From: an uncultured Candidatus Saccharibacteria bacterium
GTDB taxonomy: Bacteria; Patescibacteriota; Minisyncoccia; Sungbacterales; JACQCQ01
NCBI GenBank assembly: GCA_964494945.1
Contig: CAZBTX010000005.1
Location: 1-57,437 of the forward strand
Length of the DNA stretch: 57,437 nt
Direction: 5' to 3'
Positions 17,015-57,437 of this stretch are shown here, one piece after another. The notes under the pieces were generated by a model. The model saw only the letters and a list, made by a program, of their open reading frames with translations. It was not told the DNA's origin and searched no databases. The translations under genes were made by a program, and so were the position numbers. Positions within the stretch are counted from its first letter, which is position 1. The number at the start of each line of letters is the position of its first letter.

Positions 17015-18712
17015 ATGGTGCTTGGTCTATTGAAGAAAGAAATCCCGTCAATTCACGCAGCGGCCTTCCTCATCGGGGCCGCTGGGTTTTTGTCGCGAAT
17101 TTTAGGGCTTTTTAGGGACCGTTTGCTGGCCTCCGAGTTTGGCGCTTCCAGAACTCTGGATGTTTATTACGCTTCGTTTCAAATTCCCGATTTTCTTTTC
17201 ACCGTATTTTTGGTAGGGGCCGCTTCAGCCGCGATCCTTCCGACCTTCATTGGGTTTTGGCAGCAAGATAAAGTCAAGGCCAGATTATTTATTGGAGGGT
17301 TGCTCTCGGTATTTTCTTTGGGGGCCTTGATAATTTCTATAACGGTGGCGGTTTTTGCCCCCTTTTTGACGCGCTGGGTAGCGCCGGGATTTGACGAGGA
17401 TGGACAAGCACTTATGGTGCTTATGACCCGCATTATGATGCTCTCCCCAATATTTTTGGGAGTATCCAATATTTTTTCTTCAGTGGTTCAAGCCAATCGC
17501 CAATTCTTGGTTTTCGCGTTAACTTCCATTTTTTATAACTTGGGTATTATATTCGGCATTTTGGTTTTTGTGCCATGGTTGGGCCCTTCAGGACTCGCCC
17601 TGGGGGTGGTGTTGGGGGCATTTTTGCACATGGCCGTTCAGATCCCAGCTGTTTCTAAACTCAATTTTCGTCCCGTATTTCGGCACTGGCAAAAAATTCC
17701 CGGACTTAAAAATGTCTTAGTTTTGTCTTTGCCGCGCGTAGCGGCCCTGTCTTTGGCGCAGGTCATTATAATTGTGCTGGTGGGGCTTGGTTCTAAATTG
17801 ACGCCGGGGAGCGTGGCCGTCTTCCAATTCTCCAACAATCTGCGCTATTTGCCGATCGGTATCATTGGCGTTTCTTATGCCATGGCGGCTTTTTCTCAAT
17901 TGACTGAAGATGCGGTAAGGAAAATGGGCACTAATTTTTATACCAAGCTTTCAGCTGTTACCGAAACCATTCTTTTTTGGCTGGTGCCCATTGCCTTTTT
18001 CACGATTATCTTGCGTGCGCACATAGTCAGAATGGTTTTGGGGGCGGGGCTTTTTAATTGGGAAGACACCCGGCTAACTGCCGCGGCTCTAGCTATTTTT
18101 TCTTTGGCCATTATCGCGGAGGGCCTAAGTCCGCTTTTTTTAAGGTCTTTTTACGCTATCGGCAATACCAAGTTGCCGCTTTATATCTCTCTTTTTACCG
18201 CGACACTTGTCATAGGGTCAGCGCCCTTTTTTGTGGCTATGTTCACGACCGGACGCGCCTCCGGACACTTTATCGCCAATTTGATGAAAGTCGGTGATTT
18301 GCCGAATGTCGGGGTTTTGGGCTTGGCGATGGCGTTTACTCTGGGGAGCGTCGTTGACGCTATGCTCCTTCGCTTGGCACTATTCTCCGAGGCCAAGAAA
18401 TACTTCGGCAGCAGTTATACCAACGGTTTTGGGGTGGCTTTTGCGAAAATTATAGTGGCGGCCTTTTTGGCGTCGGTGCTGGGATACGGGACGCTTTACT
18501 TACTTTCTCCCCATATTTCGCTTTCAACTTTCTGGGGTGTCATGGGGCAGGCAACTATAACTTTTTTGGTATCAGCTTCTTTTTACGGAGCTCTTATGCA
18601 TGTTATGGGGAGCCAAGAAACGGAAGACATAATTAATCTATTCCGTCGTAAATTATTATCAAAAGAAATTGTGCCGTTGGAGCTTGACCACGAGCGCGAG
18701 TCGCTTAAGTAA
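17015..18712 (+). CDS. murJ: Lipid II flippase MurJ/MviN
   Basis: LSRILGLFRDRLLASEFGA, DVYYASFQIPD, LPIGIIGVS and LRSFYAIGNTK motifs; start at ATG 17015. Confidence 0.93.
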   Translation: MVLGLLKKEIPSIHAAAFLIGAAGFLSRILGLFRDRLLASEFGASRTLDVYYASFQIPDFLFTVFLVGAASAAILPTFIGFWQQDKVKARLFIGGLLSVFSLGALIISITVAVFAPFLTRWVAPGFDEDGQALMVLMTRIMMLSPIFLGVSNIFSSVVQANRQFLVFALTSIFYNLGIIFGILVFVPWLGPSGLALGVVLGAFLHMAVQIPAVSKLNFRPVFRHWQKIPGLKNVLVLSLPRVAALSLAQVIIIVLVGLGSKLTPGSVAVFQFSNNLRYLPIGIIGVSYAMAAFSQLTEDAVRKMGTNFYTKLSAVTETILFWLVPIAFFTIILRAHIVRMVLGAGLFNWEDTRLTAAALAIFSLAIIAEGLSPLFLRSFYAIGNTKLPLYISLFTATLVIGSAPFFVAMFTTGRASGHFIANLMKVGDLPNVGVLGLAMAFTLGSVVDAMLLRLALFSEAKKYFGSSYTNGFGVAFAKIIVAAFLASVLGYGTLYLLSPHISLSTFWGVMGQATITFLVSASFYGALMHVMGSQETEDIINLFRRKLLSKEIVPLELDHERESLK

Positions 18713-24504: not shown

Positions 24505-26247
24505 TTATATTATTTTTACGCTATTTATTCTTTCTATAAATTTAGGTATTGATTCAGCGCCCAGATCGCCCTTGCCGCGCTCTCTCACGGCCACGGTATT
24601 GGCCGCGGCTTCGCGGTCGCCAATGACCAAAAGATAGGGGATTTTTTGAAGTTCGGCGTCGCGGATTTTGCGGCCAATGGATTCGTTGCGTCCGTCAATT
24701 TCCAGGCGCACACTTTTCTCTCTAAGTGTTTTTACGACCGATTCCACGTACGTCTGGTTTTTGTCGTTTAGCGGCAGAATCGCCACTTGCACCGGCGCGA
24801 GCCAGAAGGGGAAAACGCCGGCGTAATGCTCAATCAGAAACGCGATGAAGCGTTCGTGCGACCCCAGAGGAGCCCGGTGTATTACATACACTGGTTTCTC
24901 CTTTCCGTCCTTGTCTATGTAAGAAAGATTGAAGCGCTTGGCGGCAAGAAAGTCCAATTGATTGGTAGAAGCTGTTTCTTCACGGCCGATAATGCTTTTG
25001 ATTTGGAAGTCCACCTTGGGGCCGTAGAACGCCGCTTCGCCTTCTGTCTCAACATAAGACAGCCCCGATTTTTTCATTGCGCTCCGCACAATAGCCACGG
25101 ATTTTTCCCATCCTTCGGGGGCGTTGGCGAATTTCTTTTTGTCTTTGGACGGCAGCGAAAGGCGCATGTAAAAGTTAGTAATGCCGAAAACCTGCTTGTA
25201 CCAATACTCGTGGAGTTTCATCACGTTGAGAAATTCTTCTTCTGCCTGATCTTCGCGGCAGTAAATGTGCGCATCGTTTTGCGTAAAGCCTCGTGTGCGC
25301 AGAAGACCGGCGAGGGTTCCTGAAAGTTCGTAGCGATACAGTGTTCCGTACTCGGCGTAGCGGATAGGCAGTTCCCGGTAACTGTGGGGTTCGGCTTGAT
25401 AAATAAGGTGGGTGTGCGGGCAGTTCATGGCTTTCAGGTAGTAATTTCCGTCGTCGAGTTTCATGGGGGGGTACATACTTTCAAGGTAATAGGGGATGTG
25501 CCCCGAAGTTCGGTAAAGGTCTTCTTTGGCAATGTGAGGAGTGGTGACTCGTTGATAGCCCCATTCAGTTTCTACCTTCTTAGCTCGTTCTTCGATGGCG
25601 TCGCGTATAGCAGTTCCGCGAGGCAGCCATAGCGGCAGGCCGGGGCCGACAAGCGGAGAAAAAGTAAAAAGTTTGAGCTTTTCGCCAAGAATACGGTGGT
25701 CTCGTTTTTTTGCTTCTTCCTGTTGCCAGAAATACTTTTCAAGCTCTTCTTTAGTTCCAAAAGCCACGCCGTAAATGCGAGTCAGTTGCGGGTTTTTTTC
25801 ATCGCCGCGCCAGTACGCCCCGGCCAATTTAGTTAGCTTGAAAGCATCGGGGTTTATCTCTCGGGCGCTGGCCAAATGACCGCCGCGGCAGAGATCCCAG
25901 TAATCGCCGGATTTGTAGAAACTGACTTTTTTTCCGCCCTTGGCAAATTCCTTGATGAGTTCGTGCTTATAGGGATTTTTCGGGTATTCTTTTTTGGCTT
26001 CGGCGGCAGTTAGCATGTGCTTCTCAAATTTGTCCCAAGTCGGCAGGATTTCCCGCATTTTTTTCTCAATTTTGGGGAGGTCGGCCTCGCTAATCGGTTT
26101 TTTAAACTCAAAGTCAAAATAAAACCCGTTCTCAATCGCGGGGCCGATGGTGCGCTTGGTGCCGGGCCATAATTGCATTACGGCAGCGGCTAGGAGATGG
26201 GCTAAGGAGTGGCGAAGATTTTCCAGTTCTAATCCTTCTTTTGCCAT
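24505..26247 (-). CDS. thrS: Threonine--tRNA ligase
   Basis: LRHSLAHLLA, DLCRGGH, LKAMNCP, LLRTRGFTQNDAHIYC, AAFYGPK and IHRAPLGSHERF motifs. Confidence 0.98.
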   Translation of the reverse strand: MAKEGLELENLRHSLAHLLAAAVMQLWPGTKRTIGPAIENGFYFDFEFKKPISEADLPKIEKKMREILPTWDKFEKHMLTAAEAKKEYPKNPYKHELIKEFAKGGKKVSFYKSGDYWDLCRGGHLASAREINPDAFKLTKLAGAYWRGDEKNPQLTRIYGVAFGTKEELEKYFWQQEEAKKRDHRILGEKLKLFTFSPLVGPGLPLWLPRGTAIRDAIEERAKKVETEWGYQRVTTPHIAKEDLYRTSGHIPYYLESMYPPMKLDDGNYYLKAMNCPHTHLIYQAEPHSYRELPIRYAEYGTLYRYELSGTLAGLLRTRGFTQNDAHIYCREDQAEEEFLNVMKLHEYWYKQVFGITNFYMRLSLPSKDKKKFANAPEGWEKSVAIVRSAMKKSGLSYVETEGEAAFYGPKVDFQIKSIIGREETASTNQLDFLAAKRFNLSYIDKDGKEKPVYVIHRAPLGSHERFIAFLIEHYAGVFPFWLAPVQVAILPLNDKNQTYVESVVKTLREKSVRLEIDGRNESIGRKIRDAELQKIPYLLVIGDREAAANTVAVRERGKGDLGAESIPKFIERINSVKII

Positions 26248-26319: not shown

Positions 26320-26547
26320 ATGAACGGGTTCTGGCGAGGGTTTTGGAAGTTCCTGAATGCCGAACTGGAGCCGGCGGATGCGATCAGAATTCCCTTTTTG
26401 GTTCTAGCACTCGTTTTGCTTTCCGTTCCGGCGTCAGTCCACCGCTGGAAGCAAAAAAGAGCCGAGAGAGCGCGCCGGCAACTGGAGGTCGCTGACCTCG
26501 CAGTGTATCGGGGGGAGATGGAACCAAAAACCGGAGAGTCGCCCTGA
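26320..26547 (+). CDS. Small membrane hypothetical protein
   Basis: AGGAGG upstream, one hydrophobic segment, followed by a hairpin. Confidence 0.55.
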   Translation: MNGFWRGFWKFLNAELEPADAIRIPFLVLALVLLSVPASVHRWKQKRAERARRQLEVADLAVYRGEMEPKTGESP

Positions 26548-26548
26548 C

Positions 26549-26578
26549 ACGGCCCCCATCGCAGACGATGGGGGCCGT
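26549..26578 (+). terminator. GC-rich hairpin terminator
   Basis: ACGGCCCCCATCG-CAGA-CGATGGGGGCCGT. Confidence 0.65.
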
Positions 26579-26674
26579 TATCAATTGTATTTATTAAATT
26601 AACTCACTCGCCCGGCCGCAAAACTTTTCTAATCAATCATTTCAATCATTCTTAGTTAGTTATTATTGATCATT

Positions 26675-26694
26675 TACATAATTTATTCCTATAG
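26675..26694. promoter_or_regulatory. 20-bp site upstream of the PaaX-like gene (direct repeat of 27270-27289)
   Basis: TACATAATTTATTCCTATAG abutting a TAAAAT -10-like box. Confidence 0.75.
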
Positions 26695-26711
26695 TAAAAT
26701 AATATGTATAT

Positions 26712-27269
26712 ATGAAAAAACTGCGACGGTTGGGGAGTGTGCAACGCGGGATTATGCAGCTTTTGGATCAAGTTGGAGCGATGAGTTTTGTGTTACTAAC
26801 TTCTGGAAAACACGCTAAAACTATTCTACGGAATTATCATCAACGTTCGCACGAGCGAGTTATTAGCTCTTTGGAGTCATTGAAACGTCGTCGGCTGATT
26901 AATATCGCGGATGACGGAACGGAAACCCTTATAACTCTAACACGTGATGGCAAACGCGAGTTGCTTCGTTACGGTTTAAATACCATGGTGCTCTCGCGTA
27001 AACAAAATTGGGATGGTGTGTGGCATATGGTAATTTTTGATATTCCAGAGCGGTATGGGAAAGCGCGACGCGCGCTGTCTTTCAAAATTCAATCTATTGG
27101 AGCATTTCGTTTGCAGGATAGCGTGTATGTGTATCCATTTTCTTGGCAGAATGAAATTGATTTCTTGAGTGAGTTTTTTCATGTAAGTCCGTTCATCCGA
27201 TACATTAAAGCCAGTTTTGTGGAAGGAGAAGAAGATCTTTTGCGGCGCTTCTCTTTGCATAAACGATAA
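26712..27269 (+). CDS. PaaX-like regulator (wHTH plus Cas2/ferredoxin-like domain), CPR family
   Basis: SLESLKRRRLI..ITLTRDGK wHTH; WDGVWHMVIFDIPE..RALSFKIQSIGAFRLQDSVYV. Confidence 0.82.
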   Translation: MKKLRRLGSVQRGIMQLLDQVGAMSFVLLTSGKHAKTILRNYHQRSHERVISSLESLKRRRLINIADDGTETLITLTRDGKRELLRYGLNTMVLSRKQNWDGVWHMVIFDIPERYGKARRALSFKIQSIGAFRLQDSVYVYPFSWQNEIDFLSEFFHVSPFIRYIKASFVEGEEDLLRRFSLHKR

Positions 27270-27303
27270 TACATAATTTATTCCTATAGGAATAAATTAT
27301 GTA
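27270..27303. repeat. 34-bp perfect palindrome directly after the PaaX-like stop codon
   Basis: TACATAATTTATTCCTATAGGAATAAATTATGTA equals its own reverse complement. Confidence 0.92.
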
Positions 27304-27343
27304 AGAATCTCTGCTATGCAGAAATCCCTGCATTGCCGCGGAT

Positions 27344-30300
27344 TTACAGAAGTTCGCTCACCTGGTCGCAAAGGACCTTGGGTTCGCCGTCTTTTTCCGA
27401 GACCTTGCCTCTGACTAAGAGCACTTTATCCATTTGCCAGATATTCGGGTTTTTGGCGAGCAGCGATGGGAATACCAGAACTTCGGTTCTGGCGGTGGTG
27501 TCTTCCATGGTTACAAATAGCATGGAGTCGCCGCTTTTGGTGAGAATTTTCTTGACTTCGGAAACAATGCCGCCAATTGAGACCTGGCGGCCTCTAACGG
27601 ATTCGGCACCAAGTCCGCGTATGGGTATAGCTTTTTCTTTGAGTTGGGAAACGAAATCAGAAAGCGGGTGCTCCGTTACATAAAGACCCAGTAATTCTTT
27701 TTCCCATTGGAGGCGCTCTTTTTTGGAGGCAGATTCAGTGGGGGTGAGACGAAGCGCCGAGGCGACCTCGGGGCTCCCGCCGAATAAACTGGTTTGATTG
27801 GCGGTATTTTGACTCGCCAAACTGCGCGCATAGTTTAAAATTAAATCCATATTTTGCAATATCTGGTTTCTTTCGCCCAAACTATCCAGTGCTCCGCATT
27901 TGGCAAGTGCTTCAAGCGATTTCCGGTTTAGGTCTTTCATCAGCAGTCGTTCTATGAAGTTAGCCAATCCCGTAAACTGGCCATCGGCTTTTCGTGCCTT
28001 GATAATGGCCTCCACAATATTAGACCCGACATTTTTTATGGCCGAAAGCCCAAAACGGATTTTCATGGGCGGCTCAAAATTGATAACGGTAAAGTTCTCA
28101 AAACTCTCATTTACATCCGGCGCCAAGACCTCGATGTCCATGGATTTGGCCTCGTCAATCAAGGTCGCCACGCGTTCAATATCAAATCCTTCCGCCGTCA
28201 TTAAGGCCGCCATGTATTCGGCGGGGAAGTGGGCCTTTAAGTATCCCGTCTGATACGCCACGAGCCCGTAGCAAGCGGCGTGCGACCGGTTAAATCCATA
28301 TCTGGCAAAAGCCGGGAAAAGTTCCCAAATATTCTCTGCCGTTTGGCGGTCAATGCCTTGCCGCACCATACCGGCTATCAATTTTTCTTCCTGCTCGGCT
28401 AAAAGCGATTTTATTTTTTTGCCAATGGCTTTTCTAAGCGTATCGGCTTCGGGAAGCGTGTAGCCCGCCAAATCGCGCGCGATTCTCATCATTTGCTCCT
28501 GATAAACGCCGATGCCATAAGTGGGGGAGAGTATGGGTTTTAATTTGGGATGCAGATAGTGTATGTCCTCTTTGCCATGTTTTCGTTTGATATAACTTGG
28601 CAGATATTCCATGGGGCCGGGGCGGTATAACGCCACCATGGCGATTAGGTCTTCCAATTCCGTTGGCCTTAGGTCTTTTAGGAAACGCTTCATGCCGGAT
28701 GACTCCATTTGGAAAACGCCGGTGGTCTTGGCATCCTGAAAAAGCTTGTATGTTTTTTTATCGTCCAGCGGCAAGTCGTCAATATTTATATCAATACCTC
28801 GCAGTTTTTTAATAATTTCCACGGCTCGCTCAATGATAGATAAGTTGCGAAGCCCCAGAAAGTCCATTTTCAAAAGTCCCAGGTCTTCCACGCCGTGCAT
28901 GTCATATTGGGTTACCAGAACCTCTTCTTGGGACTGGCCTTGGGAACGAGTGGCGTATTGCAAGGGCACGAAATTTTCCAAGGGTTCCGGCGCTATAACG
29001 ACACCCGAGGCGTGTATTGAAGCGTGCCGCGCTACGCCCTCCAGTTTTAAGGCGGCATCAATTAGGCGCTTGGCTTCGGGATCGTTGGCGTATAAGGTCT
29101 TTAATTCCTGCACTTCCCCCAAGCACTGTATCAACCATCCCTCTTTCATGCCTTGAGTGGGATTGAAAGGAATAAGTTTGGCGAGCTGGTCGCAGAAAGC
29201 ATACGGCATACCAAGGGCTCTTCCCGTATCACGAATGGCGGCACGCGCCGCCATAGTTCCAAAGGTAATAATTTGCGCCACCCTGTCGGCCCCGTATTTC
29301 TTCTGAACATATTCAATAACTTTGTCTCTCCCGGTATCGGCAAAATCCAAGTCAATATCGGGCATGGCAATGCGCTCGGGATTTAAGAAGCGTTCAAAAA
29401 GAAGATTGTAGTGAATGGGGTCAATGTTGGTAATGTTCAAAACATAAGAAATTAAAGAGCCGGCAGCCGAGCCGCGCCCGGGACCGACGATGATATTTTG
29501 AGTTCTCGCCCAATTTACAAAATCCTGCACTACCAGGAAATAAGAAATGAAGCCGGTCTTTTTGATTATTTCAAATTCGTAATTATAGCGCTCGCGGATA
29601 GCTTTTACGGCAGGGTCTTGGCTTTTAGCTAAGTCGTTTGGTTTAATGCCGTACCGTTTTTCTATGCCGCCTAAGCATAACTTTTGAAAATAGGTTTCTT
29701 GAGTAAATCCCGGGGGAGTGGCGTAGGGAGGAATCTTATTTTTGCCGAGCTCAATTTCAAGATTTACCGAATCGGCGATTTTCGCGCTATTTTCAATGGC
29801 TTCCGGCAGGTCGATAAAGAAAGAAGCCATTTCTTCCGGTGAGCGGATAGAAAGATTTGCCTCACGCATGGTCAAGCGATTTTCGTCTTCAAACCGGGCG
29901 CCGGTTTGGACCGAAACCAGAATGTCCTGGGCTTCCGCGTCATCGGCGCGGCAGTAATGAATATCGTTCGTGGCAACCAGCTCCGCCCCCGTTTTTTTGC
30001 CGAGTTCCCGCAGCATTTCGTTTTTTACTTTTTGGTCCGGGTAGTTAAAATGCGGCATTATCTCAAGGTAGAAGTTTTCTTTGCCGAAAATGGATTGGTA
30101 TTCGCGGATTAATTTTTCCGCTTTATCCAATTGCCCGGCTTCCAGTGCTCGAGACACCTCTCCGTTAAAACAGCCGGAAAGGGCTATTAACCCTTTTGAA
30201 TATTTACCCAAGAGCTCTTTATCAACTCGCGGCTTGTAATAAAAACCCTTAAGGTGCGCGGCCGTAACCAATTTGACCAGATTGTGATACCCCTCGGTGG

Positions 30301-30580
30301 TTTTAGCGAGCACCGTTAAGTGAAATCGGCGGTCATCCAATCCCGCGTCTTTATCCGTCATTTTGCGGGCCGCGATATACATTTCGCATCCGATGATGGG
30401 TTTTACTCCCGCCTTTTTGGCTTTTTGGTAAAACTCAATGGCGCCGTATAAATTGCCGTGGTCGGTGAGCGCCACGGAGTCCATTCCCAGTTCTTTTACG
30501 CGCGCGACAAGTTCATCAATTTTGGTGAGGCCATCAAGCAGAGAATAGTGAGAGTGGACGTGCAAGTGCGCGAATCGCAT
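27344..30580 (-). CDS. dnaE: DNA polymerase III alpha subunit
   Basis: HLHVHSHYSLLDG PHP domain; GPGRGSAAGSL, MPDIDLDF, LLKMDFLGLRNL and GFNRSHA motifs; start at ATG 30580; no intein seen. Confidence 0.98.
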   Translation of the reverse strand: MRFAHLHVHSHYSLLDGLTKIDELVARVKELGMDSVALTDHGNLYGAIEFYQKAKKAGVKPIIGCEMYIAARKMTDKDAGLDDRRFHLTVLAKTTEGYHNLVKLVTAAHLKGFYYKPRVDKELLGKYSKGLIALSGCFNGEVSRALEAGQLDKAEKLIREYQSIFGKENFYLEIMPHFNYPDQKVKNEMLRELGKKTGAELVATNDIHYCRADDAEAQDILVSVQTGARFEDENRLTMREANLSIRSPEEMASFFIDLPEAIENSAKIADSVNLEIELGKNKIPPYATPPGFTQETYFQKLCLGGIEKRYGIKPNDLAKSQDPAVKAIRERYNYEFEIIKKTGFISYFLVVQDFVNWARTQNIIVGPGRGSAAGSLISYVLNITNIDPIHYNLLFERFLNPERIAMPDIDLDFADTGRDKVIEYVQKKYGADRVAQIITFGTMAARAAIRDTGRALGMPYAFCDQLAKLIPFNPTQGMKEGWLIQCLGEVQELKTLYANDPEAKRLIDAALKLEGVARHASIHASGVVIAPEPLENFVPLQYATRSQGQSQEEVLVTQYDMHGVEDLGLLKMDFLGLRNLSIIERAVEIIKKLRGIDINIDDLPLDDKKTYKLFQDAKTTGVFQMESSGMKRFLKDLRPTELEDLIAMVALYRPGPMEYLPSYIKRKHGKEDIHYLHPKLKPILSPTYGIGVYQEQMMRIARDLAGYTLPEADTLRKAIGKKIKSLLAEQEEKLIAGMVRQGIDRQTAENIWELFPAFARYGFNRSHAACYGLVAYQTGYLKAHFPAEYMAALMTAEGFDIERVATLIDEAKSMDIEVLAPDVNESFENFTVINFEPPMKIRFGLSAIKNVGSNIVEAIIKARKADGQFTGLANFIERLLMKDLNRKSLEALAKCGALDSLGERNQILQNMDLILNYARSLASQNTANQTSLFGGSPEVASALRLTPTESASKKERLQWEKELLGLYVTEHPLSDFVSQLKEKAIPIRGLGAESVRGRQVSIGGIVSEVKKILTKSGDSMLFVTMEDTTARTEVLVFPSLLAKNPNIWQMDKVLLVRGKVSEKDGEPKVLCDQVSELL

Positions 30581-30649
30581 GGTGTTACTATTATAGTCAG
30601 GCGAGGGGGTTAATTGGTAGTAGACAGCCAGTTGATTTATAGTCAAATC

Positions 30650-31336
30650 ATGCGACAGCGTTTTATCCCCACATCTTCCAGAGGGCCCAGTGGTCTTACC
30701 GCGGGGATGAGGAGACATGCCTTAAGGTCATTACCACGGAATGCAGTACCCCCTAAGAAGGTGTGGGGATTTATCGGCGGTATTGATGAAGCGGGGAGAG
30801 GGCCTTTAGCTGGGCCGGTGTCATTGGCGATGGTAGTAGCTCCTAAAGGATTTAGATTTTATCATCCCGAACTGGGAAAAATCAGGGATTCAAAGAAGCT
30901 TACTCCCAAGCGCCGCGAGATCTGGCATAAGTTTTTAACGACTCATCCTAAGCTCTCGTATGTCAGGACCTATGTCCATCCCAGAGTCATTGATAGGATA
31001 AATATCGCCAAAGCCGCGCATCGGGGGGCCTTGAGATTGGTGCTTCGTTCCGAAACGCGGCCGCATTTTGTTTATCTTGATGGGGCGCTCTCGCTTCCTC
31101 CGGAAATCCTGCACAAGGTGGTAATCCGGGGGGACGACAGAATTCCTATAGTCGCGGCCGCTTCTATTATTGCCAAGGTCGCGAGAGACAGGTACATGAC
31201 GCGGCTGGCTAAAAAATTCCCCAAATATAGGTTTGACGCGCACAAAGGATACGGCACCCGCGTTCATATAAAGGCCATTAAAAAGTACGGTCCGTCTCCA
31301 TTCCATAGGGAGTCATTTATTTCGTCGTTTGTTTGA
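30650..31336 (+). CDS. rnhB: Ribonuclease HII
   Basis: GIDEAGRGPLAGPV, DSKKL, RGDDRIPIVAAASIIAKVARD and HKGYGT motifs; start uncertain. Confidence 0.95.
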   Translation: MRQRFIPTSSRGPSGLTAGMRRHALRSLPRNAVPPKKVWGFIGGIDEAGRGPLAGPVSLAMVVAPKGFRFYHPELGKIRDSKKLTPKRREIWHKFLTTHPKLSYVRTYVHPRVIDRINIAKAAHRGALRLVLRSETRPHFVYLDGALSLPPEILHKVVIRGDDRIPIVAAASIIAKVARDRYMTRLAKKFPKYRFDAHKGYGTRVHIKAIKKYGPSPFHRESFISSFV

Positions 31337-36550: not shown

Positions 36551-39500
36551 ATGGAATCCGAACATTATCAATTGGTAGACATCATCAAAAGAACCGGTCG
36601 TCCCAAGACGACCCTTTTGCGTTGGGAGCGGGAAGGCAAAATTCCCGTGGGACAGAGAGACGTACACGGATGGAGATATTACACGCGTGGCGAATTTGAA
36701 ATGATAATCCAATTTGCCGAGCGAATGCAGAAAAATATTTTTACTTACATCCCGAGGCATACTCGCATGGTCGCACAGGACTCCGCGCCCAAACAAAAAA
36801 AGATTTTCAACACGGTGCTGGCGCGTCTCGGTATCCGGATGTTCCTTACGATATTAATTTTCGTGGCTATTGCGGCACCCCTTAGTTTATCCGCGACCGC
36901 GGGTGTCCCGAGTGTTATAAATTATCAGGGACGACTTTTGAATTCCAGTAGTAGTCTCCTGGGCGGCGCCGGAACCAATTACTGCTTTAAATTTTCGATT
37001 TACGACAATCCGACAGTTGATTTAGGAACGAAGCTCTGGCCCTCGGGTTCACCCGCCACTACCACCATCAGCGTCAAAGAGGGCGTTTTCAACGCGGCCA
37101 TCGGCGCGGGCGACGACGCCTTGACTTATGATTTCAAACAAAACAACACGATCTATTTGAACGTTGAGGTGGGAAGTCAGGTAAGCGGATCGTGCGCCTC
37201 GGCTTCGTTTGAAAATCTTAGCCCGCGGCAAAGGATAGTTTCATCCGGTTACGCCATCACTGCCGGTTCTGTTTTTGGCACGGCGCAGTCCGCCGTTGGC
37301 ACTACTTCACTTATTGCCAGCACTTCTCTAACCGTAGAAGCTACTTCCACGTCCGTCATTCCTTTGACACTTCGCGGATTCGCCAATCAATTGGCCGATC
37401 TCTTCCGCATTGTAACCGCGGCCGGTTCTCAACTTTTGACGTTCACGAGCGGAGGATATTTAGGCATCGCGACATCTTCCCCGTCGGAGGCCTTGTCGGT
37501 CGCAGGAAATCAATATGTTACGGGGACCGGACTTTTTGGCGGCGCTTTGAGTGCTGGTACCATCCTCCTTAATGGTTCTTCTACTTTCCAAAACTTCACC
37601 TTCATAAATGCCACGGGTACGGCGGCTACCACGACCTCTTTGACTGTCACGGGCTATGCTTCCACCTCGGCTTTGACGGTGTCCAACTTGAACGCCGCCA
37701 GCTGCGACGTCAAATCCAGCATCACTGGCGTGCTTTCCTGCGGCACGGACGCCGCAGGCGGCGGCACCGGTTCCAACTGGTCCTTCTACTCCCAGTTCGT
37801 TATCACGCCTTCCACTACTCCCATCGGCGTCATCGTTTCGGCCGCCTCCTCCACCATTCCCGGTCTTAGCATGACTTTTTCCACGACGACATATGCCACC
37901 ACCACGTCCCTGGCTGTTACCGGCGCGGCTTCCACTTCTGTTCTCACTGTATCTAACGATGCCACTCTCATGGGCGGCCTCACTCTCACCTGCACCGACT
38001 GCCTCACCGACACCAACGTGGCCAACGGTCTCACCATCTCCGGCGGCAGTATCAACTCCACCCCCATCGGGGCCTCCACCGCCAGCACCGGCGTCTTCTC
38101 CAACGCCACTTCCACCAACTTCTACATCTCCGGGAACTTCCTATCAGGTGCCGCCTCTTCCACCATTACTTTCCTGCAGACATCTTTCTCCACCACCACC
38201 GCTGCCACCACCACGTCCCTGGCGGTGACGGGCTATGCTTCCACCTCGGCTTTGACGGTGTCCAACTTGAACGCCGCCAGCTGCGACGTCAAATCCAGCA
38301 TCACTGGCGTGCTTTCCTGCGGCACGGACGCCGCAGGCGGCGGCACCGGTTCCAACTGGTCCTTCTACTCCCAGTTCGTTATCACGCCTTCCACTACTCC
38401 CATCGGCGTCATCGTTTCGGCCGCCTCCTCCACCATTCCCGGTCTTAGCATGACTTTTTCCACGACGACATATGCCACCACCACGTCCCTGGCTGTTACC
38501 GGCGCGGCTTCCACTTCTGTTCTCACTGTCTCGGGCGCCTCCATCCTTAACGGCAATGTCACCCTGGGCCAGTCCAAGTTACAGACCCTAACCTTAAATG
38601 CCGGACGGCTGGACTTCATCAATGCCGCCACCTCCACCGTCATCAATGACATCGCCACCGCCTGGAGCATCGCCACTTCCACTACCGACATCACTCCCAT
38701 ACTTGTCATCTCCACTGCGTCCACCACGCCCGCCGGCGAGGGAGCGGTGGGCATCGGTACCTCATCTCCGGTCCAGCACCTCTCGGTCTCGGGCAACGCG
38801 TACTTCACCGGAGGCCTGGGAGTGGGAGCAGCCACCAGTACCAACGGCAACTTCCAGCTAACTGGGGACGCTCAAATCGGGACCGCTCTCTCGGTGGGAG
38901 GCATCGCTTCCTTCGGAAACACCATCACCGGCACCGTCTTGAACAGCACCACCGGTATCAACACGGGAGCGGGCGCCGGCACCCAAAGGATTGACTCCTC
39001 CGGCAATCTTTCCAGCATCGGCACCATCAGCGCCTCGGGCCTGGCCACTCTCTCGGGCGGCATTCTCGCCAACTACGCTTCTTCCACCATTCGGGGACTA
39101 TTCGTGGACATGGGGACGACGACATACGCCACTTCCACTTCTCTGGCGGTCACGGGATACGCCTCCACTTCGGCCTTGACGGTGTCTAACCTCAGCACGC
39201 TCATGGGCGGCATCCTTTCTAACTACGCCTCCTCCACCATTCGGGGACTATTCGTGGATATGGGCACCACCACCTACGCCACCTCAACCTCTCTTGCCGT
39301 TACCGGAGCCGCTTCTACTTCAGCGCTTACGGTTTCCAACACATCCATTCTTAACGGCAACGTAACTCTCGGCGCCACTTCGGCGCAGACGTTGACGGCG
39401 AACGCTTCTTCCACTTTTGCCAATAGTGTTGCTCTCAACGGGGATATTGCCATGGGGAATGCCATTGGAGACCGCATTTCCATCAGCGCCGGACTCGTAA

Positions 39501-57150: not shown

Positions 57151-57437
57151 GTTGACCCCGTTAGAAGCAGGTCGCGATCAGATTAACTTTTTTCTATACA
57201 ACATCTTAAATGAAACATTGTTTGTATGCTGTTAAAGAAACTACCGCGATCGCGGCTTCTAACGGGGTTGACCCCGTTAGAGACCCGCATAGAATCATGT
57301 CTAATTCCATGACAAGCCGAAACAAAAAACCACCCTTGATCGTTGTTAACTTCCAGAAATGCGGAACGTCGCATTTCTTGTCTCTAACGGGGTTGACCCC
57401 GTTAGAGACCCGCATAGAATCATGTCTAATTCCATGA
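57151..57437. repeat. Head-to-tail array of GTTGACCCCGTTAGA...TCTAACGGG units
   Basis: Units start at 57151, 57267 and 57392; junctions form TCTAACGGGG-TTGA-CCCCGTTAGA; 57383-57437 duplicates 57258-57312. Confidence 0.92.

Follow-up and report, generated by a model that had tools for sequence, protein, structure and literature searches.

The contig CAZBTX010000005.1 of an uncultured Candidatus Saccharibacteria bacterium, analysed over positions 1 to 57,437 (the window), carries between thrS and dnaE a gene for a 185-aa protein of the PaaX type, here called mini-PaaX (26712-27269, + strand), which is bracketed by two copies of its own palindromic site. The evidence presented below makes it probable that mini-PaaX is an autorepressor with two cognate operators, located on a passively mobile accessory cassette. 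An earlier note on this DNA had offered the choice between operators, for autoregulation or looping, and recombination ends of a one-gene mobile cassette. Operators and autoregulation are favoured by a promoter within one of the sites, an enrichment of -10-like hexamers at the upstream sites of homologs, the bipartite symmetry of the sites and a site geometry resembling that of the PaaX operator; the recombination ends found no support.

The gene and its two sites

The 20-mer TACATAATTTATTCCTATAG is present at 26675-26694 (+), 27270-27289 (+) and 27284-27303 (-). Further copies were not found in the 57-kb window with up to three mismatches allowed, the chance expectation being 0 (100 shuffles). 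The upstream copy ends 17 nt 5' of the ATG (26712) and directly adjoins the hexamer TAAAAT (26695-26700), the downstream copy starts with the first base after the TAA stop codon (27267-27269) and belongs, as its left part, to a perfect palindrome of 34 bp (27270-27303), whose arms measure 17 nt each and pair in all positions (100 %). These positions had been reported in the earlier note and were verified; overlooked at that time was a second 34-bp palindrome, imperfect, that includes the upstream copy (26675-26708). The two palindromes are identical in 30 of 34 positions, and all four differences fall into the right arm of the upstream one, where TAAAAT sits.

A sigma-70-like promoter is predicted on the + strand at 26673-26700, with a -35 box TTTACA (26673-26678), a 16-nt spacer and TAAAAT as -10 box. 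It agrees with the consensus in 10 of 12 positions, and both boxes lie inside or over the upstream site. From the distance between the -10 box and the ATG a near-leaderless mRNA is deduced, with a transcription start that is itself a prediction. We regard 26675-26708 (core CCTATAGt) as the predicted upstream operator, placed over the promoter, and 27270-27303 (core CCTATAGG) as the predicted downstream operator.

At the RNA level a strong hairpin is predicted for the downstream site, whichever strand is read (-17.1 kcal/mol, z = -6.3), but no fold for the upstream site (-3.9 kcal/mol, z = +0.47). The downstream palindrome was picked up by a terminator scan on the - strand only, the direction of dnaE, where it has a T-rich tail; the cassette strand has none. 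An Rfam search of the region gave no match.

The unit is AT-rich and lies between housekeeping genes, as the earlier note had stated: the GC content of the inserted segment is 0.39 versus 0.49 for the whole window, and the neighbours are thrS, accompanied by a 75-aa open reading frame (ORF), and dnaE. The gene itself has a GC content of 0.43 and a third-codon-position GC content (GC3) of 0.39, compared to 0.54-0.56 in thrS and dnaE. By its GC3, the mini-PaaX gene is compositionally foreign.

The encoded protein

According to profile searches and a structure model, the 185-aa protein is a short PaaX type composed of a winged helix (residues ~9-91) and a Cas2-fold domain (residues ~100-180). The Pfam family PaaX_M (PF20803) matched residues 98-174 with 6.3e-17 and 61.9 bits (cut-off 24); the Pfam model of the PaaX N-terminal part (PF07848) gave no match in the same search of the protein. 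An AlphaFold2 (AF2) model built on an alignment of 98 homologs reached a pLDDT of 89.9. It shows a winged helix with helices at residues 9-21, 26-38 and 46-59, wing strands at 63-76 and a further helix at 78-91, followed by a β-α-β-β-α-β domain at residues 104-167. The best Foldseek match in the PDB was E. coli PaaX (8a39, E 5e-6, 183 columns), aligned over the full length of the protein. Next came the PaaX-like structures 3l09 and 3kfw, the winged-helix repressors BpsR, AspA, RosR and PadR, which align with the N-terminal part, and Cas2 (5xvn_F). These results support the PaaX/Cas2-type fold with winged helix that the earlier note had named.

Mini-PaaX ends at residue 185, where the ligand-binding domain of PaaX would start; the 8a39 chain has 305 residues. 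A match to the ligand-binding domain PaaX_C (PF08223) was not obtained, the full-length PaaX model TIGR02277 scored 12.7 bits against a cut-off of 264.55, and no paa genes are among the window neighbours thrS, the 75-aa ORF and dnaE. The protein is not a phenylacetate regulator, a possibility that the earlier note had raised.

Cas2 profiles aligned with their positions 3-40 to residues 105-141 and remained below the cut-offs (TIGR01573, 22 bits vs 24.5; PF09827, 14.2 vs 23.8). PADLOC and PHROGs yielded nothing beyond weak Cas2 similarity. Profile and structure searches revealed no transposase or recombinase domain, only similarity to PaaX_M, Cas2 and winged-helix proteins. The window contains no CRISPR array-like repeats, and cas Pfam families are absent from the annotated homolog loci. 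With scores below the cut-offs and neither a CRISPR array nor a cas gene in the window or the homolog loci, the protein is not a Cas2. In a k-mer scan of 148 homolog loci (numbered with L in the following), L033 was the sole array-like match: the 20-mer GGTGAATGTTTTAACTAAAC is repeated three times at 613-723 with a 55-nt period, ~200 nt upstream of the tblastn homolog match (937-1296), and is presumably a tandem repeat and no CRISPR array. Residues W100, F109, D110, P112, Q135, S137 and P142 are invariant in the 98 homologs. D110 occupies the position of the catalytic Asp of Cas2, after β1 in the motif FDIPE.

Cognate site pairs around homologous genes

Homolog loci were obtained by an alignment-based scan of genome contigs; a scan with the single protein had found nothing. 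Flank statistics refer to 150 distinct homolog genes, and site pairs were tested by local alignment in the 136 loci with both flanks. Each of the first four homologs to be inspected was flanked on both sides by a palindrome of its own, all of them centred on CTATAG and with different arms. This proved to be a family trait: a significant cognate site pair surrounds the gene in 109 of the 136 loci (80 %). The core C[GT]A[TC][CA]G was detected at most 150 nt from the gene in 84 % of upstream and 83 % of downstream flanks, versus 13 % in the control. When at least 8 of 12 symmetric arm positions were required in addition to the core, 52 % of the loci upstream and 59 % downstream still had a site, but only 0.1 % of the control windows. 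A 12-mer or longer word was common to both flanks in 63 % of loci, compared to 3.5 % of permuted pairs. Sites had a median length of 40 bp, with median gaps of 26 nt between the end of the upstream site and the start codon and 24 nt between the stop codon and the downstream site. Solo sites occurred about once per 137 kb of flanking DNA; the sites are almost confined to the neighbourhood of genes of the mini-PaaX family. The earlier note had named homologs without flanking repeats and in fixed synteny as its refutation, and such a result was not obtained: the homologs have flanking palindromes, whose arms differ from locus to locus, and the genes are not syntenically fixed, with PMT, DnaJ, trigger factor, miaA and others as neighbours.

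The sites are bipartite: an 8-bp core is conserved, the adjoining 4-bp spacer lacks symmetry, and the outer boxes are symmetric but specific to each locus. The core is of the type GCGATCGC, GCTATAGC or CCTATAGG; the commonest sequences were GCGATCGC (40), GCTATCGC (25), GCTATAGC (19), ACGATCGT (16), CCGATCGG (12) and CCTATAGG (11). Counted from the centre, the complementary fraction was 0.63-0.96 at positions 1-4, 0.54-0.67 at positions 5-8 and 0.66-0.86 at positions 9-17, and it equalled the background from position 24 outward. The central 4 nt were often non-palindromic (TATC 45, GACC/GGTC 16, TGGA 6). The stem of a hairpin is paired best beside its loop, therefore the low symmetry at positions 5-8 suggests a protein dimer with one central and two distal contacts rather than a hairpin. 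Hexamers resembling a -10 box began 14-24 nt past the site centre in 44 of the 109 upstream sites and in 10-12 of the downstream sites.

Within the 109 pairs the relative orientation of the two sites was direct in 46, inverted in 24 and symmetric or indistinguishable in 39. The distance from site to site shows no helical phasing (R 0.116, p ~0.23), a result neutral on looping. In the window the downstream site is the purer palindrome; as a general rule for the family this was rejected, with 40 loci each way and 29 ties. Some sites in L111, L083 and L105 are perfect palindromes of 50-64 bp. Third site copies are rare. They bound neighbouring genes in L112 (copies at 2970/3604/5243; a cell-wall hydrolase pair) and L118 (54/958/1605; two small membrane-like proteins), and in L135 (1514/2167/2251/2332) the additional copies are stacked before the downstream gene, which encodes a fibronectin-III-domain protein. 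One candidate for a third site in the window, an outer-box match with three mismatches at 18627-18658, was treated as a chance match because it lies within a coding region, the 3' part of a 605-aa ORF, and has no CTATAG core.

The family is large. An exhaustive search of cluster representatives found 2395 clusters (50 % identity) at E <= 1e-3 and 1070 at E <= 1e-10. The members have nearly all 180-200 aa, and PF20803 is present in all homologs listed. Their annotation is inconsistent and reads hypothetical, "PaaX" or "CRISPR-associated Cas2"; PGAP calls some of them Cas2. Genomic matches were almost all to metagenome-assembled genomes of Patescibacteria, the candidate phyla radiation (CPR), with a few from Thermodesulfobacteriota. 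No relatives were found in viral contigs, plasmids or phage collections. In the literature on PaaX or Cas2-like proteins in CPR bacteria, covered incompletely, no description of the family was found. The window has one copy of the gene, several genomes have two to three paralogs. These are diverged and each has different sites; non-overlapping site specificities were found for the paralog groups L013/L015/L068, L018/L058 and L049. Pairwise identity averages 29 % for the N-terminal and 51 % for the C-terminal domain; the more variable and the more conserved domain stand in parallel to the variable arms and the conserved core of the sites. The idea that the cassettes always lie between convergent genes was rejected, as the downstream neighbour is co-directional in 65 of 99 cases.

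Selection and covariation

Locus L005 presents the same insertion in a relative, with 82 % protein identity. The comparison of both genes yielded a synonymous divergence (dS) of 0.81 and a ratio of nonsynonymous to synonymous divergence (dN/dS) of 0.13, with 0.20 for the N-terminal and 0.05 for the C-terminal domain. The upstream sites are identical in 34 of 34 positions, which has a probability of ~4e-7 at the identity of third codon positions. The sole difference between the downstream sites is a symmetric double substitution, so that the palindrome stays perfect. To judge from this alignment, the sites are under strong purifying selection. A similar picture emerged for L043 and L145, which have 86 % protein identity in unrelated contexts: DNA homology extends over the upstream site, the gene and the downstream site, but is not found in the spacer between stop codon and downstream site.

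The earlier note had suggested that the palindrome covaries with the recognition helix of the winged helix. A lead in this direction is that residues 47 and 53 of the predicted recognition helix are the best partners of arm positions 10-12. The top mutual-information pair combined residue 120, located in helix α1 of the Cas2-fold domain, with position 4 of the half-site. Where position 4 is G, residue 120 is Arg in 4 of 6 clusters (50 % identity); where it is C, the residue is Glu, Asp or Asn in 21 of 22 clusters and Arg in none. The pairings of residue and base are chemically sensible and are treated as leads. The covariation of residue 120 with a core base would indicate a contact to DNA rather than RNA cleavage.

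Insertion at the 3' end of dnaE

By its DnaE, with 74-78 % identity, the organism is placed near Candidatus Sungbacteria. The earlier note had advised to look for empty sites, and they are present in four of these relatives (L167-L170, DnaE 74-78 % identical): dnaE is followed by a terminator hairpin, sometimes by a small ORF on the opposite strand, and then by thrS, and neither a PaaX_M gene nor a palindrome is located between dnaE and thrS. Because dnaE and thrS adjoin without the gene in four relatives, the ~0.72-kb unit is an insertion.

In the window, the dnaE stop codon is followed by a 40-nt tail, the downstream site, the gene, the upstream site, ~50 nt, a decayed copy of the dnaE end and the old hairpin terminator. 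The accessory cassette itself comprises leader, upstream site with promoter, gene, downstream site and tail (26629-27343, +). On its left, a degenerate repeat of the final ~30 nt of dnaE, stop codon included (26594-26628, -), marks the insertion boundary; on its right, the functional dnaE 3' end (…VLCDQVSELL*, 27344-27379, -) is the right-hand copy of the duplicated target. The remnant matches in 21 of 35 positions (~60 %, hand count of the alignment), which is not significant alone; 19 columns are invariant across the four aligned sequences, and the local match is 15/19. Its weight comes solely from L005, where the dnaE end copied upstream of the cassette is well preserved (33/37 identical) and can be aligned with it, as can the dnaE 3' ends of the window and of L005. 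A GC-rich hairpin at 26549-26578 (ACGGCCCCCATCG / CGATGGGGGCCGT, 13-nt arms of 100 % complementarity) was probably the ancestral bidirectional terminator of dnaE and the 75-aa ORF, split from dnaE by the insertion, since a comparable hairpin occurs 4-25 nt past the dnaE stop codon in L167, L168 and L170. The tail (27304-27343) contains a second, smaller hairpin, AGAATCTCTGC.TAT.GCAGAAATCCCT, folding on the - strand just before the dnaE stop. Its sequence is not kept in L005, where the tail has 110 nt.

Target duplications were also observed at other loci. In L005 the duplication measures 36 bp, in L049 it is perfect over 28 bp, and L104, L110 and L164 have 24-47 bp at a miaA-like gene; in these three the cassette sits at the miaA-like 3' end, and the old end together with the terminator is displaced to the far side. 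That the cassette of L049 had carried along a piece of miaA at its right end was considered and rejected, as the proteins are 40-43 % identical and DNA homology is absent outside the coding motif. The boundaries of the duplications are 11-110 nt outside the palindromes. Cassettes with 80-88 % identical proteins occur in unrelated contexts (L043/L145, L157/L163).

The duplication is not specific for mini-PaaX. Two unrelated cassettes, a restriction-modification-like pair of a C5 DNA methyltransferase and an HNH-like protein in L163 (2564-4226) and a methyltransferase-like membrane protein with an NYN-domain protein in L130 (3670-5139), each lie between the copies of a conserved gene end that is duplicated over 28-39 bp, and are inserted within ~270 nt of a PaaX_M cassette. 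Relative to L163, the locus L159 (2037-2770), and likewise L157, has a 735-bp one-gene insertion that adjoins the PaaX_M cassette on its upstream side. The gene product has 182 aa; a promoter-like site and a hairpin belong to this insertion as well, and no duplication is visible.

The earlier alternative of recombination ends served by a protein that is its own mobiliser is not supported. The palindromes do not look like the ends of the element, because the duplications lie outside of them, their orientation is mixed, the empty sites have no solo palindrome and the same generic duplication of ~30 bp accompanies unrelated cassettes. The cassette is probably passively mobile and not self-mobilised. 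A single crossover of circular DNA within ~30 bp of homology at conserved gene ends, a Campbell-type integration, may be the route. The duplicate in L005 is fresher than the divergence of the genes predicts, which such a single-crossover integration would explain.

Proposed function and alternatives

The palindromic operator of E. coli PaaX, TGATTC-N27-GAATCA, spans ~39 bp, and the repression that PaaX exerts on its own promoter is steric (PMC9493321). This phenylacetyl-CoA-responsive repressor of E. coli and Pseudomonas (8a39) shares with the window protein the order of an N-terminal winged helix and a Cas2-like PF20803 domain, and the wide spacing of its half-sites appears to resemble that of the window sites, with 34-40 bp and boxes at positions 9-17. 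In analogy, the Cas2-fold domain would make the dimer of mini-PaaX, and a symmetric dimer may bind the bipartite palindrome of 34-40 bp. The conserved Cas2-fold domain probably reads the 8-bp core, CCTATAGG here and GCGATCGC or GCTATAGC elsewhere, which has ~4 non-symmetric bp to its left and right; the locus-specific 9-bp outer boxes are probably contacted by the fast-evolving winged helices. One site covers the promoter of the gene, therefore self-repression is proposed. The site just past the stop codon would be a second operator and could act as loop anchor, as roadblock or terminator, or as titration site. The cassette inserted at the dnaE 3' end most likely by a generic route, short-homology or Campbell-type integration, and the same route would also move unrelated cassettes in these genomes. 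Mini-PaaX differs from PaaX in the missing PaaX_C domain, its 185 aa instead of 305 residues and the absence of paa genes nearby. In addition, its site has a conserved 8-bp core and a second cognate site follows the gene, and the mini-PaaX proteins constitute a huge, CPR-centred, multicopy family of hypervariable specificity on accessory cassettes.

Several points weigh against this autorepressor with two operators. A repressor without ligand that targets only itself is functionally odd, and the retention of the second site is left unexplained by it. The promoter is a consensus match only, and three such matches occur in the region where 2.3 are expected. The perfect palindromes of 50-64 bp in L111, L083 and L105 exceed what a dimer should need, and the invariant F109, D110 and P112 could point to an enzymatic activity beyond dimerisation. 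The covariation is confounded by shared ancestry, its best pair fails the correction for ~2500 cluster-level tests, and a partial Mantel test of arm similarity against N- or C-terminal identity gave no signal specific for the N-terminal domain, with arms that are saturated below ~50 % identity. The search for further sites in this genome was limited to 57 kb.

An unlikely alternative is a single-chain module of the toxin-antitoxin or abortive-infection kind. Its winged helix would repress the gene at the palindromic operator in the manner of a type II antitoxin, a latent RNase would reside in the Cas2/VapD-like domain, and the purpose would be addiction or defence. The Cas2/VapD-type fold, with the Cas2 profile match at residues 105-141, would fit, and so would an accessory and patchy distribution, several paralogs per genome with non-overlapping site specificities, the strong purifying selection on the gene and the vicinity of other variable cassettes including the restriction-modification-like pair. 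However, a partner gene is absent, PADLOC and PHROGs returned only the weak Cas2 similarity, and the C-terminal domain is by its scores a PaaX_M (62 bits) rather than a Cas2 (14-22 bits, below the cut-offs). The covariation of residue 120 with the core base would indicate DNA as the partner, and the second site is unexplained by such a module as well. Compared with Cas2, mini-PaaX has the ferredoxin-like β-α-β-β-α-β fold and the invariant Asp after β1 (FDIPE), but stays below the cut-offs, is fused to a winged helix, lacks a CRISPR array and cas genes and apparently recognises DNA sequence-specifically. Type II antitoxins and small phage-type repressors are similar in being small, accessory, patchy and multicopy with orthogonal specificities and a palindromic operator over the promoter, but mini-PaaX is a single gene and has a longer bipartite operator and a second operator downstream.

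We consider it improbable that the unit is a self-mobilising one-gene element or encodes a site-specific nuclease, with the Asp110 domain cutting or recombining at the CGATCG/CTATAG centres and the sites as substrates for excision, homing or exchange. The layout is that of an insertion sequence: one gene between two putative sites for its own product, a promoter in one of them and a target duplication. Relatives have empty sites, which makes the unit an insertion, cassettes with 80-88 % identical proteins are found in unrelated contexts, long target duplications flank the cassettes of L005, L049, L104, L110 and L164, and F109, D110 and P112 are invariant at the position of the Cas2 β1 Asp. Some sites are very long perfect palindromes, and the third copies bounding neighbour genes in L112 and L118 look array-like. 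Against this stand, beside the duplication boundaries 11-110 nt outside the sites, the mixed site orientation (46 direct, 24 inverted, 39 symmetric), empty sites without a solo palindrome, the rarity of solo sites and the same duplication signature at unrelated cassettes, the following observations: near-identical intragenomic copies are missing, and the paralogs have diverged and differ in their sites; collections of plasmids, phages and viruses yielded no member of the family; D-x-P-E is also a plain helix N-cap motif; and the same fold is the dimerisation module of PaaX (PMC9493321). In contig-level read data no excision joints were detected, which carries no weight since these contigs are themselves broken at the palindrome: Logan contigs from four groundwater metagenome runs all start or end within the perfect palindrome (27274-27299), because it breaks the assembly. 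Unlike those of insertion sequences, the mini-PaaX sites are palindromes individually, and their relative orientation varies. The duplication, 28-47 bp in length, is long, variable and outside the sites, the protein has no transposase or recombinase fold, and identical copies within a genome are lacking. Integron gene cassettes, promoterless ORFs with a single downstream attC that are arrayed beside an integrase, differ in that mini-PaaX has a promoter-like site and sites on both sides; an integrase was not seen in the window neighbourhood or in the annotated homolog loci. Equally doubtful is a new kind of selfish element, whose Cas2-fold domain would read and nick, cleave or exchange the CGATCG/CTATAG centre and which would spread with a private specificity.

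That the palindromes are nucleic-acid structures only (terminator or insulator hairpins, cruciforms), not bound by the encoded protein and similar to each other by duplication, is very unlikely: the strong RNA fold of the downstream site with its positive terminator scan on the dnaE strand, the compensatory double change in L005 that keeps the palindrome perfect, the separation of dnaE from its old terminator hairpin by the insertion and the often non-palindromic, loop-like central 4 nt would agree with it, but positions 5-8 beside the supposed loop are the least complementary part, the upstream copy has no fold and lies in the promoter outside of the transcript, the core is conserved family-wide with arms that track the protein, and the sites are found almost only beside genes of the family.

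If mini-PaaX is indeed an autorepressor with two cognate operators, the CPR bacteria (Patescibacteria) carry a very large family of minimal PaaX-type repressors, each member with a private pair of 40-bp operators. Nature would thus offer a library in which repressors and operators are paired orthogonally, and a clean system for how a winged helix together with a Cas2 fold reads DNA. The systematic misannotation as "CRISPR-associated Cas2" is corrected here, and the window documents gain and loss of single-gene cassettes at conserved gene ends in reduced CPR genomes, with a duplication signature of ~30 bp. The success of a ligand-less, self-regulating repressor may have a mundane answer (local regulation, insulation) or an interesting one (addiction, defence, mobility). 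If the Cas2-fold domain acts on the sites, the Cas2 fold would be tied to sequence-specific DNA transactions outside of CRISPR.

Neighbouring genes and further repeats in the window

The cassette is neighboured by the ThrRS-like ORF (thrS, 24505-26247, -), by the 75-aa ORF with the GC-rich hairpin (26320-26578, +) and by dnaE (27344-30718, -). The database version of the window DnaE has 1078 aa, therefore translation probably starts ~46 codons downstream of the beginning of the longest ORF. In several close relatives, DnaE contains inteins (1445-1931 aa, Pfam Intein_splicing); the window DnaE has none.

Three further regions of the window are repetitive. A unit of ~1155 bp is present in three copies at 13-2366, with a 43-nt exact repeat at 13, 1169 and 2324. 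Inverted repeats of 24 nt (ATCCCGTTAGAAATTAACACTAGA) are located at 1039, 1125, 2194 and 2280. This region may be another repeat-bracketed gene set. Internal repeats of 145-300 nt with 60-97 % identity characterise 37619-39340, which is probably a gene for a repeat-containing protein. At the edge of the window (57258-57437), 55 nt are directly repeated without mismatch at a distance of 125 bp, and this repeat contains the GC-rich hairpin TCTAACGGGGTTGACCCCGTTAGA.

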